A stretch of DNA of 64,000 bases from an uncultured Dehalococcoidia bacterium (GTDB taxonomy: Bacteria; Chloroflexota; Dehalococcoidia; Lucifugimonadales; UBA3495). Numbering within the stretch: position 1 is the stretch's first letter; each line of letters starts with the position of its first letter. A model generated the notes under the pieces. That model worked only from the letters and a program-made list of their open reading frames with translations. It searched no databases and was not told where the DNA came from. Positions 5,860 to 26,856 of the stretch are shown in pieces. Both the position numbers and the translations under genes were made by a program. The stretch lies in the NCBI GenBank assembly GCA_964629875.1, contig CAZVRK010000007.1, positions 169-64,168 of the forward strand, read 5' to 3'.

Positions 5860-7077
5860 ATGAATGCAGTTCTTAAAAATATCAAAGTGGTTGACCTTAC
5901 CCGCACTCTAGCGGGTCCATTCTCAACAATGATGTTGGGGGATATGGGAGCGGAGGTCATAAAAATAGAGGAGCCTGAGAACGGAGATGAAACACGGTCT
6001 TGGACTCCATTCTGGAATGGAGAGAGTAGCGTTTTTGTTGCTTTTAACCGGAACAAAAGAGGTATCAGTGTAAACTTAAAAGAGCAGGAAGGAATAGATT
6101 TAGTTCTATCGTTGGTAAAAGACGCTGATATTGTTGTGGAAAGTTTTCGGGCTGGGGCTTTGGACAGGATGGGGTTAGGATACGCTGATATTAAAACAAT
6201 TAACCCCAATATTATATATTGTTCAATTTCAGGGTATGGTCGGACTGGGCCTTTAGCAAACAAGCCGGGATATGATCTTCTGATACAGGCCTACAGCAGT
6301 CTAATGAACCTTACAGGTGAAACTGACGGAATGCCTATGAGAGTCGGGTTTTCTTTGGTGGATTTGTTTACGGGTATGATGGCTTATGGGTCTATGATGA
6401 CGGCTTTATATCACAGGAACGTGACTGGCAAAGGGCAATGGATTGAGGCTGCCCTGCTTGATGGCCAGGTGGCTGCTATGAGCTATCATGGGACAGCGTA
6501 TCTGGCTACAGGTATTGATCCTTTGCGTATGGGTTCTGGTCATCCCAGTTTAGTGCCATATCAAAGTTTTGGTGGGTCAGATGGCAATTTTATCCTAGGA
6601 GTGGCAAACAATGGTCTTTGGCAACGATTTTGTAATTCCATAGAACATCCTGAATTGTTGGAGGATCCTAGATTTCGGACGAATGACGATCGAGTGGCTA
6701 ATCGCTCTGAATGTGTGCGGGCACTTAACAATATTTTTGGGGATAATACGGTTTCGTATTGGGTTGAGAAAATTAGTGAAGCAGGTGTTCCTTGTGGCCC
6801 TATAAATCAAGTCTCAGATGTTGTTAATGATCCTCATGTTCTCTCTAGGGATATGATTTCTGGGATAGAACACCCAAATATTCCTGATCTTCGTTTCCCA
6901 GGATCCCCCCTGAAACTTACCGAGACCCCTCCCACTATTAGACGAGCGCCCCCGTTGTTAGGGCAGCATAATGAGGAAATTTTGAATGAACTGGGGTATA
7001 GCTCAGAGTCAATAGATTCCTTAAGGGACCGGGGTGTAATAGGCAAAACCCAGTTCCCGAATGGAAAACAAGCATGA
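5860..7077 (+). CDS. Family III (CaiB/BaiF) CoA-transferase
   Basis: VVDLTRTLAGPFSTMMLGDMGAEVIKIE N-terminus. The catalytic Asp motif SLVDLFTG is retained. Confidence 0.9.
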   Translation: MNAVLKNIKVVDLTRTLAGPFSTMMLGDMGAEVIKIEEPENGDETRSWTPFWNGESSVFVAFNRNKRGISVNLKEQEGIDLVLSLVKDADIVVESFRAGALDRMGLGYADIKTINPNIIYCSISGYGRTGPLANKPGYDLLIQAYSSLMNLTGETDGMPMRVGFSLVDLFTGMMAYGSMMTALYHRNVTGKGQWIEAALLDGQVAAMSYHGTAYLATGIDPLRMGSGHPSLVPYQSFGGSDGNFILGVANNGLWQRFCNSIEHPELLEDPRFRTNDDRVANRSECVRALNNIFGDNTVSYWVEKISEAGVPCGPINQVSDVVNDPHVLSRDMISGIEHPNIPDLRFPGSPLKLTETPPTIRRAPPLLGQHNEEILNELGYSSESIDSLRDRGVIGKTQFPNGKQA

Positions 7078-12758: not shown

Positions 12759-12891
12759 GGTGACTCCAATTACGTTAGAAGTTGTTGATTGTGTGATATC
12801 ATCTGGGGTATCGCAACATTAGTATAGCAGTCCGGTATGAAGAGGCTATATGAAGAAGTTAGTTTAAATATATTTGCCAAGGAGGTTGGTT

Positions 12892-13353
12892 ATGTCTTTA
12901 GACATCGGAGATAGTGCCCCAGATTTTAAATTGGCATCAGTTAGTGATGGCGATATCACCTTGAGCCAGTTCAAAGGCGAGAAGCATGTCATCCTATCCT
13001 TTCATGTTTTGGATTTTACAGGTGGTTGAACCGATCAAGCGACTTCTTTTCGAAAATATAATGCTCAGTTCGAAGAGAGTGATGCCCAAGTTTTGGGTAT
13101 AAGCTGCGATCATGTAGCGGCTCATAGAGCATGGACAACTGCAATGGGAGGGCTTCCGTATCCAGAGCTCTCTGATTGGCATCCAAAAGGACAGGTTACA
13201 GCATCCTACGGGCTATGGAATGAGGAACGTGGTGCTGGCACTAGGGCTGTTATGGTAGTGGATAAATCAGGTGTTATAAGGTTTATGGAGAAATATGTTC
13301 CAGGAACATTGCCAGATCCTAATGAAATACTTCAGTTTGTAAAGGGTCTATAG
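12892..13353 (+). CDS. AhpE-like peroxiredoxin with in-frame UGA (putative selenocysteine) at codon 46
   Basis: GGAGG at 12881-12885 precedes ATG 12892. The frame passes TGA at 13027-13029 and joins the listed ORF 13093..13353 in the same frame. The product is ...HVILSFHVLDFTGG-U-TDQ..., with the UGA on the peroxidatic Cys position of the Prx motif. Confidence 0.7.
13044..13079 (+). promoter_or_regulatory. Candidate bacterial SECIS hairpin
   Basis: CUUUUCGAA (13046-13054) pairs with UUCGAAGAG (13069-13077), extendable by U13045-A13078 and U13044-G13079. The 14-nt apical loop is AAUAUAAUGCUCAG. The stem begins 15 nt after the UGA. Confidence 0.45.
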
Positions 13354-13396
13354 AAAAAGGACGGCTGCCCAGCCGTCCTTTTTCTATAGACCCTTT
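13341..13396. terminator. Bidirectional terminator: 27-nt perfect inverted repeat
   Basis: AAAGGGTCTATAGAAAAAGGACGGCTG (13341-13367) is the perfect complement of 13370-13396. The core is GGACGGCTG/CAGCCGTCC, flanked by A5/T5. Confidence 0.8.
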
Positions 13397-13411: not shown

Positions 13412-14233
13412 CTACCCTCCAATCTTCTCGATTCGGTAACTCACAGTGCCTTTGGGCACGCTTATCGATATATCTTCCCCTACTCGTCTATCCAACAGCG
13501 CTTGTCCTACCGGAGACTGCGTTGATATCTTTCCTGCAGACACATCAGCTTCTCTCACGTCTACTAAAGTATATAGAATCTTTTTCCCCGAATCACCATC
13601 TTTTAATGTTACAGTGCAACCCATTGATACTTTCGCCTGTTGGGCTTTCCTACCTCTCTGGGTTATTATTTCCACCCTGCTTAATGTATCTTCCAATTCC
13701 CGTATCTTCGATTCTATTAGCCCTTGTCTCTCCTTAGCCGCGTCCAAAGGTGAATTTTCTCGAAAATCTTTATCTTCCATGGCGTATTTGATATCTTCAA
13801 CGACTGACACCCTATCTATTTTGAGTTCGTCAAGTTGAGTCACCAGACGCTCATATCCTTGTTGGCTTAGTTGGGTGCTTGGTGTGTCTTCAATCATTAC
13901 TGTTTTACTATTACCGCTGGTGGTTTTCCTATTGCGAGGTATTCTGAGGTGTGTTGCTAAGCTAGCTTCAATCCAGCCTTGGGTTTTTAAAAATGCTAGA
14001 AATTCTTTCACGGGACTAAGTCTAATGCCCGCATCAGAACCTCCTAGCCCCACATATTGGGCGTAATCAGCTATTTCCGCGGGTGCTAAGCTAGTCACTG
14101 CTCGCTCGCGTCCTAGCCAGGCTATAAATCTTCCAATCTCGTGATGTCCCTCAGTGGGTTTCTTCCCGTTCTTTTTTGCGGAAACGTATTGGCTTAAAGC
14201 CTCAGTACATGACAAACTAGTAGGTATTACCAC
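13412..14233 (-). CDS. greA: GreA-family transcript cleavage factor with a roughly 112-aa N-terminal extension
   Basis: The C-terminal 160 aa are canonical GreA: coiled-coil tip DFRENSPLDAAKERQ and a C-terminal domain ending VSYRIEKIGG. GTG 14233 has AAGGAG 7 nt upstream. The internal ATG 13897 lacks an SD. Confidence 0.8.
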   Translation of the reverse strand: MVIPTSLSCTEALSQYVSAKKNGKKPTEGHHEIGRFIAWLGRERAVTSLAPAEIADYAQYVGLGGSDAGIRLSPVKEFLAFLKTQGWIEASLATHLRIPRNRKTTSGNSKTVMIEDTPSTQLSQQGYERLVTQLDELKIDRVSVVEDIKYAMEDKDFRENSPLDAAKERQGLIESKIRELEDTLSRVEIITQRGRKAQQAKVSMGCTVTLKDGDSGKKILYTLVDVREADVSAGKISTQSPVGQALLDRRVGEDISISVPKGTVSYRIEKIGG

Positions 14234-15647: not shown

Positions 15648-15956
15648 ATGGCTGAAGTAGTTAGTCAAGAGGAAGTTTACGAGGCTTTAAGGACTGTTTA
15701 CGATCCGGAAATACCGGTTAACGTGGTAGACCTGGGTTTGATATACGACGTTCAGGTAAGCGATGAGAATGACGTTTTTGTTCAGATGACATTGACCTTT
15801 CCGGGGTGTGGTATGGGGCCTCACATAGCCCAACAGGCTGAGTGGGCCATACAGGATGTAGAAGGTGTTGAGGATGTCCAGATAGAGTTGACATTTGATC
15901 CTCCTTGGAGCCCTGATCTAATTAGTGATGAAGCTAGGTCTTCTCTAGGTATATAG
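15648..15956 (+). CDS. DUF59/MIP18-family Fe-S cluster assembly protein (SufT/PaaD-like)
   Basis: VYDPEIPVNVVDLGLIY and TFPGCGMG motifs. Confidence 0.85.
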   Translation: MAEVVSQEEVYEALRTVYDPEIPVNVVDLGLIYDVQVSDENDVFVQMTLTFPGCGMGPHIAQQAEWAIQDVEGVEDVQIELTFDPPWSPDLISDEARSSLGI

Positions 15957-16012: not shown

Positions 16013-16822
16013 ATGAGTACTCCACAAGAAAATGCCCGCTTGGAACAAATCAAACGTAGTTGGGACCAAAGACGTCAGATAACTGATCGTTTATCAGGAA
16101 TTAAGTCTAAAATTGGTGTATACAGTGGTAAAGGCGGGGTAGGTAAAACCACGGTGTCAGTCAACTTGGCGGCCAGCTTGGCTTCAGAAGGAAAAAAAGT
16201 AGGGCTGTTGGATGTAGATATAGATTGCCCGAACGCTAATAAAGTTTTAGGTGTAACCGAACCTGCAGACTATGTTGATGGTCAGATAATACCTGCCGAG
16301 AAGTGGGGCGTTAAAGTCGTGTCAATGGCGTTCTTCCAGGAGAAAGAGGATGAAGCGATAATATGGCGTGGGCCAATGGTACATAATGCGATTAACCAGT
16401 TTCTCCAATCTACAGAGTGGGGAGAGCTGGATTACTTAATCGTGGATCTACCTCCAGGCACATCAGATTCCCCTCTTACAGTAATGCAGACTATACCTAT
16501 GGATGGGTTTGTAGTAGTCACTACACCTCAACTACTAGCCAATGTTGATGCGAAACGTTGTATTAATATGATTCGCAAGTTAAATTTGAATATAGTAGGT
16601 GTAGTCGAGAACTATACTGGAGATATATTTGGCCAGGGAGCAGGATCTGTGTTGGCCAAAGAAGTGGACACTGAATATCTAGGTAGCATAGCACTTAGGC
16701 AGGCGTATCAGGATACGAGTCGGCCGACTGTGTTACTGGATGATGAAGTCTCAACTGAGTATGATTCTATAACGACAAAGTTCAGAGAAAGCCTAAAGGC
16801 TTTGGGCAGAGAAGCCCCTTAG
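16013..16822 (+). CDS. mrp: Mrp/NBP35-family Fe-S cluster carrier ATPase
   Basis: Deviant Walker A SGKGGVGKTT and DLPPGTSD. Confidence 0.9.
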   Translation: MSTPQENARLEQIKRSWDQRRQITDRLSGIKSKIGVYSGKGGVGKTTVSVNLAASLASEGKKVGLLDVDIDCPNANKVLGVTEPADYVDGQIIPAEKWGVKVVSMAFFQEKEDEAIIWRGPMVHNAINQFLQSTEWGELDYLIVDLPPGTSDSPLTVMQTIPMDGFVVVTTPQLLANVDAKRCINMIRKLNLNIVGVVENYTGDIFGQGAGSVLAKEVDTEYLGSIALRQAYQDTSRPTVLLDDEVSTEYDSITTKFRESLKALGREAP

Positions 16823-24778: not shown

Positions 24779-24834
24779 TCTGTTTGCTGAGGTGTATTGA
24801 CAGTGATTTTCATGAATGATACGCTCAATGTAAT

Positions 24835-25101
24835 AGCGTTGATGGAGACGAGTAGGTTAATCTAAATCGCAAAGCGAGCCTGGTATGGTGTGAGCAGGTG
24901 CGTATAAATTACCGAAAATCCCTCCGGAGCTGCCAGCAGAAAGGGCTAGAATCCTGAGTAAGCCAAGGCCGAGTTCGTCGTCCGTTACTAACGACGGGGC
25001 ATGATGGTGTCCTTATTGAGAGGCCTGAATTTTCGGGCAAATAGGGTGGTACCGCGGGATTAATAAAAAAGTCCCGTCCCTAAGTGGGACGGGACTTTTT
25101 T
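24835..25101 (+). promoter_or_regulatory. T-box riboswitch leader of ilvB
   Basis: K-turn/S-turn UGAUGGAGACGAGUAGG (24840-24856). AG-bulge and distal-loop type sequences (24873-24895). CCGUUA (24982-24987). T-box AAAUAGGGUGGUACCGCGGGA (25039-25059). A terminator follows, and an antiterminator pairing is possible. Confidence 0.85.
25065..25101 (+). terminator. Intrinsic terminator of the T-box leader
   Basis: AAAAAAGTCCCGTCCC (25065-25080), loop TAAGT, GGGACGGGACTTTTTT (25086-25101). The 16-bp stem is perfect and ends in a T6 run. Confidence 0.85.
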
Positions 25102-25161: not shown

Positions 25162-26856
25162 TTGAAACTTAAAGGTTCGGAAATAATTTGTGAAAGTCTT
25201 CTCAAAGAGGGTATTGATGTAATTTTCGGTCATCCGGGAGGCGCGATTCTGCCCTTCTATGATGCTTTGTGGAGTTATCCTCAACTAAAACATATTTTAG
25301 TGAGACATGAACAATCGGCAGCTCATGCCGCTGATGGATATGCTCGTATGACTGGTAAACCAGGTGTGTGTGTCGCTACCTCCGGCCCAGGAGCTACTAA
25401 CTTGGTAACCGGTATCATGAATGCTCGGGCGGATTCTATTCCTATGGTTTGTATAACAGGACAGGTATCAAGACCGGTTTTAGGGTCTGAAGCTTTTCAG
25501 GAATGTGATATCTGTTCTATAGCAGCAGCATGTTCAAAGCGAACATATCTGGTGATGTCGACCGATGACCTGGCGTCGACTATACACGAAGCGTTCAGGA
25601 CTGCAGTATCTGGGAGGCCAGGGCCGGTTCTGGTAGATGTCCCACGAGATGTACAACTGGAACTTGCTGAATTCACTTATCCTGAAACACCAGGTTGTGT
25701 TATTGAACCTGAGCCACTATCCGAAGAAATACTTAGTAATGTTAAGCGAGCCGCACAACTTATAAATCAGTCAGAACGACCAGTCATTATAGGTGGCCAT
25801 GGTGTTGTCATGTCTCGGGCTTTCGAGGAAGTAAAAGACCTCGCAGAAACTACTGGTATACCGGTTATAAACACATTGCTCGGATTAAGTGGGTTTCCTA
25901 GAACCCATGAACTGAGCTTAGGGATGCTCGGTATGCATGGTATGTACTGGAATAATATGATCATAGAGCAATCTGATTTGATCGTTGGTCTTGGTATGAG
26001 ATTTGATGATCGAGTTACCGGAAAGGCTTCTACTTTTGCGCCACATGCTAGGATTATTCATTTAGATATTGAAGGTTCTCAGATAGGGCGTAATGTACCT
26101 GTAGAAGTACCACTTCAAGGAGATGCCAAAACCATACTCAAGTCACTAGTACCCTTGGTGGAAAAGGTTGATAGACCAGAGTGGATGGCTTATATAAATG
26201 AGACTAGGGACAATCATCCTTCATTGGCTATTCCTAGCTCTGAGAATCTACAAGCCCAAGAGGTTCTGGTTGAAATCAATCGATTGATCCAGGAAAACCC
26301 AGAAACGGTTGTTGTAACAGGTGTAGGTCAGCACCAAATGTGGGCAGCTCAATTTCTGGAGTTCAACAATAGTAATACTTTTGTGTCTTCAGGTGGGTTA
26401 GGTACTATGGGATTCGAACTTCCTGCAGCCATGGGAGCTCAATTGGGTAGACCGGGTGCTCCTGTTTGGAGTATTGCTGGGGACGGAGGCTTCCAAATGA
26501 CTTTACAAGAGCTAGCAACTGTTGCTCAAGAGAAAATGCCTTTGAAAATAGCGTTATTCAACAATGGTATTTTGGGAATGATAAGGCAGTGGCAAGAACT
26601 GTTTTTTGAACAACATTTGAAAGAAACTCCTATTCCTGGACCTGACTATGTCAAATTAGCTAATTCTTTTGGTATTCCAGCGGTCAAGGTTAGTCATCAA
26701 GAAGACGTAATGCCGGCATTACGAGCTGCAAATGCGGAAGACGGGCCTTACCTGATTGAATTCGTAGTTGATTCTGAATCTCATGTGTATCCCATGGTTC
26801 CACCGGGTGGTGGACTTGGCGACACTCTAGAAGACCCGTTGACACGAGTACAGTAA
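25162..26856 (+). CDS. ilvB: Acetolactate synthase (acetohydroxyacid synthase) large subunit
   Basis: TTG 25162 lies 6 nt after GGAGG (25151-25155). GHPGGAILPFYDAL, GLGTMGFELPAAMGA and GDGGFQM TPP motifs. Confidence 0.9.
   Translation: MKLKGSEIICESLLKEGIDVIFGHPGGAILPFYDALWSYPQLKHILVRHEQSAAHAADGYARMTGKPGVCVATSGPGATNLVTGIMNARADSIPMVCITGQVSRPVLGSEAFQECDICSIAAACSKRTYLVMSTDDLASTIHEAFRTAVSGRPGPVLVDVPRDVQLELAEFTYPETPGCVIEPEPLSEEILSNVKRAAQLINQSERPVIIGGHGVVMSRAFEEVKDLAETTGIPVINTLLGLSGFPRTHELSLGMLGMHGMYWNNMIIEQSDLIVGLGMRFDDRVTGKASTFAPHARIIHLDIEGSQIGRNVPVEVPLQGDAKTILKSLVPLVEKVDRPEWMAYINETRDNHPSLAIPSSENLQAQEVLVEINRLIQENPETVVVTGVGQHQMWAAQFLEFNNSNTFVSSGGLGTMGFELPAAMGAQLGRPGAPVWSIAGDGGFQMTLQELATVAQEKMPLKIALFNNGILGMIRQWQELFFEQHLKETPIPGPDYVKLANSFGIPAVKVSHQEDVMPALRAANAEDGPYLIEFVVDSESHVYPMVPPGGGLGDTLEDPLTRVQ

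Follow-up and report, generated by a model that had tools for sequence, protein, structure and literature searches.

An AhpE-type peroxiredoxin gene in a Dehalococcoidia bacterium with an in-frame UGA that probably encodes its peroxidatic selenocysteine

Introduction

This study concerns one locus, positions 12892 to 13353, in a stretch of 64,000 nucleotides from an uncultured Dehalococcoidia bacterium (contig CAZVRK010000007.1, positions 169 to 64,168), the whole of which we call the window. A frame that reads as a peroxiredoxin (Prx) begins there with ATG, meets TGA at codon 46, and then continues in the same frame to a TAG. The locus raises the question of whether this TGA ends a gene, marks a gene in decay, or is decoded as an amino acid and, if so, as which one. 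A sequence-only reading of the window, which preceded our analysis, had interpreted the TGA as recoding to selenocysteine (Sec) rather than as decay. That interpretation is supported by the conservation of the UGA, by Sec/Cys pairs among orthologues, by the ratio of nonsynonymous to synonymous differences (pN/pS) on either side of the codon, and by covariation in a hairpin downstream of it. We put the probability at about 0.9 that 12892 to 13353 is one functional AhpE-type peroxiredoxin gene with Sec as the peroxidatic residue. As to the parts of this reading, we are almost certain that the gene is functional and recoded at the UGA, and consider it very probable that the inserted residue is Sec.

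Results

A single reading frame places the UGA on the peroxidatic position

The features of the gene, all on the forward strand, are as follows.

12881 to 12885, forward strand: Shine-Dalgarno sequence GGAGG, 6 nt 5′ of the ATG, read off the sequence
12892 to 13353, forward strand: coding sequence of the AhpE-like peroxiredoxin, 153 residues including the predicted Sec46, assigned from the translation, the Pfam AhpC-TSA match and AhpE as best solved match
13018 to 13020, forward strand: ACA, codon of Thr43, the Thr of the TxxU motif, family-invariant and aligned with the active-site Thr of AhpE
13027 to 13029, forward strand: TGA, codon 46, putative Sec codon at the peroxidatic position, from conservation and the AhpE alignment
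13105 to 13107, forward strand: TGC, codon of Cys72 in the GISCD motif, a possible resolving Cys, invariant in two family alignments
13243 to 13245, forward strand: AGG, codon of Arg118, the conserved Prx active-site Arg, family-invariant and aligned with Arg116 of AhpE
13351 to 13353, forward strand: TAG, terminal stop of the Prx gene, from the translation

The ribosome-binding sequence, the start codon, the position of TGA as codon 46, and the continuation of the frame to 13353, as first described in the sequence-only reading, were all verified on the sequence, and translation showed the TGA at 13027-13029 to be the sole interruption of the frame. The start Met and the length are common to orthologues in 80 genomes. 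The peptide across the predicted Sec46 reads HVILSFHVLDFTGG-U-TDQATSFR. The locus had also been described as hidden from gene calling, and this proved correct: the mechanical list of open reading frames (ORFs) splits it into 12874..13029 (51 aa) and 13093..13353 (86 aa, with a TTG start), and on a European Nucleotide Archive (ENA) contig that encodes an identical neighbouring H+-pyrophosphatase, the caller gave only a 45-residue N-terminal Prx fragment.

Translated with Cys for the UGA, the sequence matches Pfam AhpC-TSA (PF00578; E = 2.5e-33, residues 5-131, 115.1 bits against a gathering cut-off of 26) and also Pfam Redoxin. Its best solved relative is AhpE of Mycobacterium tuberculosis (E = 1.3e-29, ∼36% identity); the top seven sequence matches among solved structures are all AhpE (E = 1e-29 to 2e-27), and Prx1/AhpC types come next at 1e-19. 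In the alignment, FHVLDFTGG-U lies against F(F/H)PLAFTGIC so that the UGA falls on the peroxidatic Cys of AhpE, and Thr43, U46, and Arg118, which are invariant in the family alignment, all align with AhpE active-site residues. The proposed placement of the UGA in the peroxidatic Cys column was thereby confirmed, both against FTGIC of AhpE and against the Cys-form relatives described below. An AlphaFold model was built for one of these, the orthologue P0008, standing in for the window protein. It reached a predicted local distance difference test (pLDDT) score of 77.8 and a predicted template modeling (pTM) score of 0.79, with the active-site loop below pLDDT 50; it superimposed on AhpE over the full length with a template modeling (TM) score of 0.88-0.89, and the top Foldseek matches were all AhpE. 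As judged from sequence and the predicted fold, the protein is of the AhpE type and not of the Prx1/AhpC or BCP type.

Two residues set the active site apart from that of AhpE. At position -7 from the predicted Sec, the protein has Val39 instead of Pro and so lacks the active-site Pro of the PxxxTxxC/U motif. The Val is invariant in two family alignments and is Val or Ile in metagenome relatives; some more distant relatives, e.g., P0124, retain Pro. His-Val or His-Ile at -8/-7 is found family-wide (codons 38-40 in the window, 13003-13011), whereas usual peroxiredoxins have x-Pro there. Because the Pro is replaced by Val or Ile with His before it, the top Protein Data Bank (PDB) match is an engineered AhpE mutant, F37H (5c04). 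The second residue is Cys72, which is invariant in the family alignments, while AhpE has Val there. The nearest representatives of 50%-identity clusters have SCD at this site, and more distant peroxiredoxins have SVD or SID. Cys72 is a possible resolving Cys. Neither NCBIfam model for a Sec-containing Prx reaches its cut-off on the window protein: the PrxU model NF040737 scored 67.5 bits, below 270, and the Prx-SUH model NF045827, which describes CxxU, scored 35.2 bits, below 298, the motif here being T-G-G-U.

UGA is nearly fixed at codon 46, and Cys is its rare substitute

We scanned one genome per species and found a relative of the gene in at least 298 genomes, of which the best 80 loci (L001-L080, together ∼1.6 Mb) were analysed; with the window itself, these make up a genome set of 81 sequences. 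The 80 genomes are almost all metagenome-assembled genomes (MAGs) of Dehalococcoidia/SAR202, many of them closed chromosomes. All 80 loci have a single in-frame stop, at codon 46, within an otherwise open frame of 153-155 codons, and codon 46 is TGA in 81/81 sequences and never TAA or TAG. The true terminators of the same 81 genes are TAG in 36, TAA in 30, and TGA in 15. A further 77 relatives, from soil, sediment, and sea water, came from a metagenome scan that started from the Cys-containing clade; codon 46 is TGA in 76/77 of them and TGC in one, and none has another in-frame stop. The orthologues had been named as a place to look for extra frame disruptions, which would point to decay; we found none in the 80 genome loci and in 76/77 of the metagenome loci. 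Amino acid identity in the orthologue set spans 57 to 97%, and the sequences are not clonal copies.

Cys occupies codon 46 in P0008/L082 (TGC), P0012/L083 (TGC), P0091/L084 (TGT), and L101 (TGC), and P0011 is also a Cys form. Among the sampled relatives, 157 UGA forms stand against 4 Cys forms (4/161). The gene order at L082 is that of the window, comprising a metallo-hydrolase, Prx, convergent greA, a Zn-containing alcohol dehydrogenase, a SufT-like gene, Mrp/NUBPL, and an acetyl-coenzyme A carboxylase carboxyltransferase gene; L082 is therefore a true orthologue that differs from the window by one base at codon 46. Thus, the Sec/Cys pairs that the sequence-only reading had suggested looking for among orthologues do exist, in one case even within the same gene neighbourhood.

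Three further observations were made on these sequences. The Gly codon 45 (13024-13026 in the window) is GGT in 80/81 sequences of the genome set despite saturated synonymous sites, and it is mostly GGC in the soil clade; this bias may reflect an influence of codon context on UGA decoding. UGA-containing Prx genes with 70-71% identity also occur in MAGs labelled outside Chloroflexota, namely L035 (SXND01000262.1, Proteobacteria) and L039 (JBMDXC010000490.1, Candidatus Entotheonellaceae), a placement that could be due to mis-binning or horizontal transfer. Finally, L015 and L016 belong to one MAG (99137651-...), in which the Prx locus appears on two records, OZ219949.1 and OZ219947.1, one of them a 38.6-kb 'chromosome 3'; the double locus could come from a segment that was duplicated or left unresolved in assembly.

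A hairpin downstream of the UGA is maintained at the RNA level

A hairpin suited to serve as a bacterial Sec insertion sequence (SECIS) had been proposed to follow the UGA. Folding and comparison with relatives gave two hairpins, located in the window as follows.

13043 to 13081, forward strand: hairpin 1, the putative SECIS, with a stem of 11-12 bp (13043-13054 / 13069-13081) and a 14-nt loop (13055-13068), from folding
13082 to 13100, forward strand: hairpin 2 (AUGCCCAA-GUU-UUGGGUAU), which encodes the conserved A-Q-V-L-G and whose 3′ arm holds the listed TTG 'start' at 13093

Hairpin 1 of the window, with an energy of -10.6 to -11.6 kcal/mol, is a lineage-specific form of an element that is shared by the family. 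RNAalifold analysis of 69 aligned sequences, from the UGA to +75, recovered both hairpins. The family-consensus hairpin 1 has a two-tier stem formed by columns 17-27 and 39-49 (UGA+16 to +48) and a loop of 9-11 nt; 82% of its cells are paired, and pair 27:39 is GC in 37, CG in 21, and AU in 3 sequences. As a control, we slid the 3′ partners, which lowered pairing over the whole model from 90% to 31-40%. When 119 distinct UGA forms were compared, pairing in the upper stem came to 70-99%, and pair 24:42 proved to covary too, with CG in 86 sequences and UA in 15. Some of the compensatory switches are independent events, since near-identical sequences (L010 versus L033) differ by them. The lower stem shifts in register between lineages, but the stem is retained.

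Selection on the RNA was separated from the effect of the encoded peptide by gene-wise shuffling of synonymous codons. The region of hairpin 1 exceeded its shuffles in stability in 67/67 distinct Sec forms, with a mean z of -2.28 and a z of -2.96 for the window, and in 81% of these 67 sequences no more than 5% of shuffles were as stable as hairpin 1. Two of the Cys forms, L083 and L101, lack hairpin 1 (z of -0.17 and -0.28; 4/9 and 3/9 pairs), and L088, a close UGA relative of both in one clade, folds cleanly into it. The proposed hairpin is thus present, at 13043-13081, with covariation and stability against synonymous shuffles among the relatives in its support.

In hairpin 2, 99% of cells are paired in the 67 distinct sequences, and the mean z against synonymous shuffles is -1.98. 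It is kept in three of the four Cys forms (7-8/8 pairs), with 6/8 pairs in L101, and is not Sec-specific. We did not adopt hairpin 2 as part of the SECIS, since it encodes the invariant A-Q-V-L-G with common codons and persists in Cys forms. It is probably an incidental by-product of the peptide and of codon bias, although, given a shuffle z of -2, it may have an accessory role at the RNA level.

Selenocysteine or another residue

Several results weigh against Sec as the inserted residue, or against hairpin 1 as its SECIS. No tRNA-Sec was found in the window or in loci L001-L164 with ARAGORN or Rfam, and tblastn with Escherichia coli probes was likewise negative for selA, selB, and selD across the 64 kb of the window and the same loci. 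No further UGA-interrupted selenoprotein gene was found in the window or in the orthologue flanks. Considered alone, the window hairpin is unremarkable against dinucleotide shuffles (z of -0.9 to -1.3). A G stands in the first two loop nucleotides in only 54/119 relatives, though somewhere in the consensus loop in 118/119, and the window loop, of 11-14 nt, has its G near the 3′ side. The Rfam SECIS models gave no match, the only hit being a chance gltS match at E = 8. Furthermore, the Cys forms L082 (TGC) and L084 (TGT) keep a stable hairpin, so that the structure is not strictly linked to UGA. The case for a Prx selenoprotein is, in addition, built on sequence data.

Some of these points can be accounted for. 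Because the loci cover so small a share of each genome, not encountering the Sec genes is what chance would predict. In the flank search for other UGA genes, all-frames clustering was swamped by conserved off-frame ORFs, and once a filter on codon-position GC had been applied, the Prx cluster was the only one that looked real; the search is neither independent support for nor evidence against a Sec trait. The window hairpin alone is weak against dinucleotide shuffles; the support for hairpin 1 comes from the comparison with relatives. The stable hairpin in L082 and L084 would fit a remnant SECIS after a recent Sec-to-Cys conversion. Remnant elements of this kind are known in Cys descendants of selenoproteins, e.g., FdhA and HesB-like proteins (Zhang et al. 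2006), and L082 and L084 resemble them in having a stable hairpin at the SECIS position; the direction of change in the present family rests on the 157:4 ratio and the shared neighbourhood and not on a rooted tree. A weak selA lead downstream of Prx in soil loci was traced to SufS, which has the same pyridoxal phosphate (PLP) fold and scored 587 bits with TIGR01979 against a cut-off of 475.

The alternative that survives best is that UGA is recoded, but to something other than Sec, either through near-cognate read-through by Trp or Cys or through Sec machinery or a Sec-like tRNA that inserts Cys. The Sec pathway can deliver Cys if sulfide takes the place of selenide, and this alternative would also agree with the failure to find Sec machinery in the window and the fetched loci and with a hairpin that departs from the canonical loop rule in some lineages. 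Against it, the peroxidatic column needs Cys or Sec for activity, so that Trp would kill the enzyme; TGC is one mutation away, yet Cys is fixed in just 4/161 sampled relatives; and a SelB-type hairpin is conserved at the right distance from the UGA. The Sec trait and large selenoproteomes are, moreover, documented in Dehalococcoidia. Two Dehalococcoidia MAGs, credited in BSepDB with 49 and 46 selenoprotein genes, rank in its top ten of bacteria by that number, and selenoproteins of Chloroflexi have been on record since 2006. A sponge-microbiome study (Slaby et al.) reports SelA and SelB in most bins, and the Prx-carrying SAR202 bin22 (L022) and bin87 (L059) come from that study. For Cys recoding of UGA in Dehalococcoidia we consulted Mukai et al. 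2017, which treats SepRS/SepCysS and gives no such evidence. We consider insertion of a residue other than Sec improbable.

The frame is constrained on both sides of the UGA

Synonymous sites are saturated between the orthologues and the window (pS of 0.86-0.99). The pN/pS ratio falls from 0.245 upstream of the UGA (codons 1-45) to 0.211 in codons 47-67 and 0.099 in codons 68-131. Codons 47-67, which gene callers throw away, lie between the UGA and the TTG that the ORF list takes as a start.

These values bear on the possibility that translation really terminates at the UGA, giving a 45-residue peptide, or two polypeptides with a restart at TTG 13093. The in-frame TTG does open the listed 86-aa ORF, and a caller did report the 45-aa fragment. 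Codons 47-67 are nevertheless under purifying selection in frame (pN/pS 0.21), and start-like codons after the UGA do not keep their place, the first falling at codon 63, 67, 68, 85, or elsewhere in different orthologues. The sequence-only reading had held that neither half would fold alone. Thr43 and the Sec position lie 5′ of TTG 13093 and Arg118 lies 3′ of it, so that the catalytic residues would be split, and no piece has a full thioredoxin fold. Real termination is, in our estimate, less probable still than the insertion of a different residue.

That the Cys codon was lost by nonsense mutation in a decaying pseudogene, or was misread in sequencing or assembly, would be suggested by the single step that separates TGA from TGC or TGT and by the fragments that callers produce. 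The same TGA is, in contrast, found in independent assemblies (81/81 genome-set and 76/77 metagenome sequences), in frames that have no other in-frame stop and that show purifying selection on either side of it (pN/pS 0.10-0.25) at synonymous saturation; TAA and TAG never appear at codon 46 although they dominate at the true terminators. Pseudogene decay and sequencing error are therefore excluded for practical purposes.

Genetic code and database records

The 51 long ORFs of the window end with TAA in 30, TAG in 14, and TGA in 7 cases, and the Prx gene is the only credible window gene with an internal TGA. It had been stated that TGA is an ordinary stop in the window, with 7075-7077 as an example, and this triplet indeed ends ORF 5860..7077. 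A reassigned code with UGA as sense (code 4 or 25), for which some automatic code-4 calls of relatives with Trp at position 46 might speak, deserves next to no credence, because TGA ends 7/51 long window ORFs, including 5860..7077, as well as 15/81 Prx orthologues, and the Prx gene alone carries it internally.

Searching 5.8 billion proteins yielded for the most part pieces of 86-104 aa, corresponding to the C-terminal 56-67% of the query. Eighteen homologue sequences were read. Most full-length calls among them (10 of the 18) have Trp at position 46, TGA being translated under code 4; genuine Cys stands there in 4 and Leu in 1. Gene calling breaks off at the UGA, and what public collections store of this gene is therefore an N-terminal stub of 45 aa, a C-terminal remainder of 86-104 aa, or a code-4 translation with Trp; one stored fragment of 88 aa is named "redoxin domain-containing protein". 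Of 1.84 billion cluster representatives, searched exhaustively, only 46 reached E ≤ 1e-30, UGA forms (called W) and Cys forms among them; the Prx clade is compact. Some records are irregular. P0001, with Leu at position 46, comes from a 696-nt contig; P0013 is chimeric, an N-terminal half nearly identical to the window Prx (a single difference, position 46 aside) being joined to the C-terminal half of another Prx that is also found as P0146; and P0016 and P0083 look frameshifted around the UGA.

Genomic neighbourhood

On one side of the solitary Prx gene is a divergent hydrolase gene, on the other a convergent greA-like gene. Two features adjoin Prx.

13345 to 13392, no strand assigned: perfect 20-bp inverted repeat that overlaps the Prx stop codon, from a terminator scan (3 hits against 0.4 expected)
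13412 to 14233, reverse strand: greA-like gene of 273 aa, with GreA domains at residues 119-271

The inverted repeat is likely a bidirectional terminator shared by Prx and the greA-like gene. A simple scan of the forward strand found no sigma-70-like promoter for Prx. The GreA homologue has ∼115 extra N-terminal residues without a family match, and the same long form (278 aa) adjoins Prx in L082.

Genes connected with Fe-S clusters were seen near Prx in two settings. In a soil-metagenome clade (L110, L126-L130, and L132), a SufS-family cysteine desulfurase (TIGR01979, 587 bits) lies ∼200-500 nt downstream of the Sec-Prx gene, and in the window, a SufT-like gene (15648-15956) and a gene for an Mrp/NUBPL Fe-S carrier (16013-16822) lie 2.3-3.5 kb downstream. 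The proximity may reflect a recurrent association of Prx with Fe-S genes or be a coincidence. Rfam gave a single match in the window, a T-box leader at 24830-25084 (forward strand; RF00230, 115 bits against a gathering cut-off of 93), which closely precedes ORF 25162-26856 (564 aa).

Discussion

If the UGA is read as Sec, expression and catalysis could proceed as follows. SelB carrying Sec-tRNA(Sec) would bind hairpin 1 as the SECIS, UGA46 would be decoded as Sec, and the ribosome would go on to the UAG at 13351. The Sec46 selenolate, positioned by Thr43 and Arg118, would attack a hydroperoxide and form a selenenic acid, which might be reduced via Cys72, by way of a selenenylsulfide, or else in a direct reaction with a thioredoxin- or glutaredoxin-type partner.

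The main value of the finding lies in the correction of a systematic annotation error; it brings no mechanistic surprise and leaves knowledge of Sec insertion unchanged. Because no NCBIfam model passes its cut-off for the window Prx, annotation that relies on such models will probably not recognize it as a selenoprotein. The finding adds an AhpE-type member to the Sec-peroxiredoxins, and the fact that codon 46 nearly always keeps Sec, by our reading, in marine, sponge, and soil Dehalococcoidia bears on the selenium demand of these lineages. At the level of the alignments, the clade is set apart by near-fixed predicted Sec, the absence of the canonical Pro, and the invariant Cys72. A stronger proposal would be that it forms a distinct AhpE-type Sec-Prx subclass, in which Sec is the default (157:4), His-Val or His-Ile replaces the Pro, and Cys72 resolves via a selenenylsulfide. 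We regard this as doubtful. Were it true, the family would be a mechanistically separate Sec-Prx subclass, SAR202-type Dehalococcoidia would make substantial unannotated use of selenium, and hairpin 2 might belong to an extended SECIS.

The caveat of the sequence-only reading that the family is probably not new was right, since TxxU peroxiredoxins are already established. Recognition of 'Prx (PF00578 / COG1225), TxxU' as a selenoprotein family dates from 2001-2005, which places it among the oldest that are known from bacteria, and the family is abundant in marine metagenomes. PrxU of Eubacterium acidaminophilum was described in 2001, and TxxU Prx selenoproteins have been counted as 43 genes in the Sargasso Sea data, 253 in the GOS (Global Ocean Sampling) data, and 91 in 78 sequenced organisms; a review gives the Sec-Prx motif as PxxxTxxU. 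The window Prx resembles this family in its Pfam assignment, in the probable use of Sec for the peroxidatic Cys in T-x-x-U, and in the hairpin located inside the coding sequence after the UGA. It differs from PrxU in falling under the NCBIfam cut-off, in being AhpE-type, and in having Val or Ile, preceded by His, in place of Pro.

Prx6-type 1-Cys peroxiredoxins provide a second comparison. Their sequence context is HPxxxTxxC according to PMC12697902, and they share with the window Prx the His at -8 from the catalytic residue. Prx6-type enzymes are, in contrast, longer, with a C-terminal domain, and keep the Pro, and both the sequence and the predicted fold of the window Prx favour AhpE.

The closest counterpart is AhpE of M. 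tuberculosis itself (Rv2238c), a 1-Cys enzyme and the type member of the AhpE group, which shares with the window Prx the length of 153 aa, the lack of a C-terminal extension, and the alignment of the Thr, Arg, and peroxidatic positions. It differs in having Cys at the position of the UGA, Phe-Pro at -8/-7 where the window family has His-Val or His-Ile, and Val at the position of Cys72. AhpE is reduced by mycoredoxin and mycothiol, neither of which is expected in Chloroflexota.

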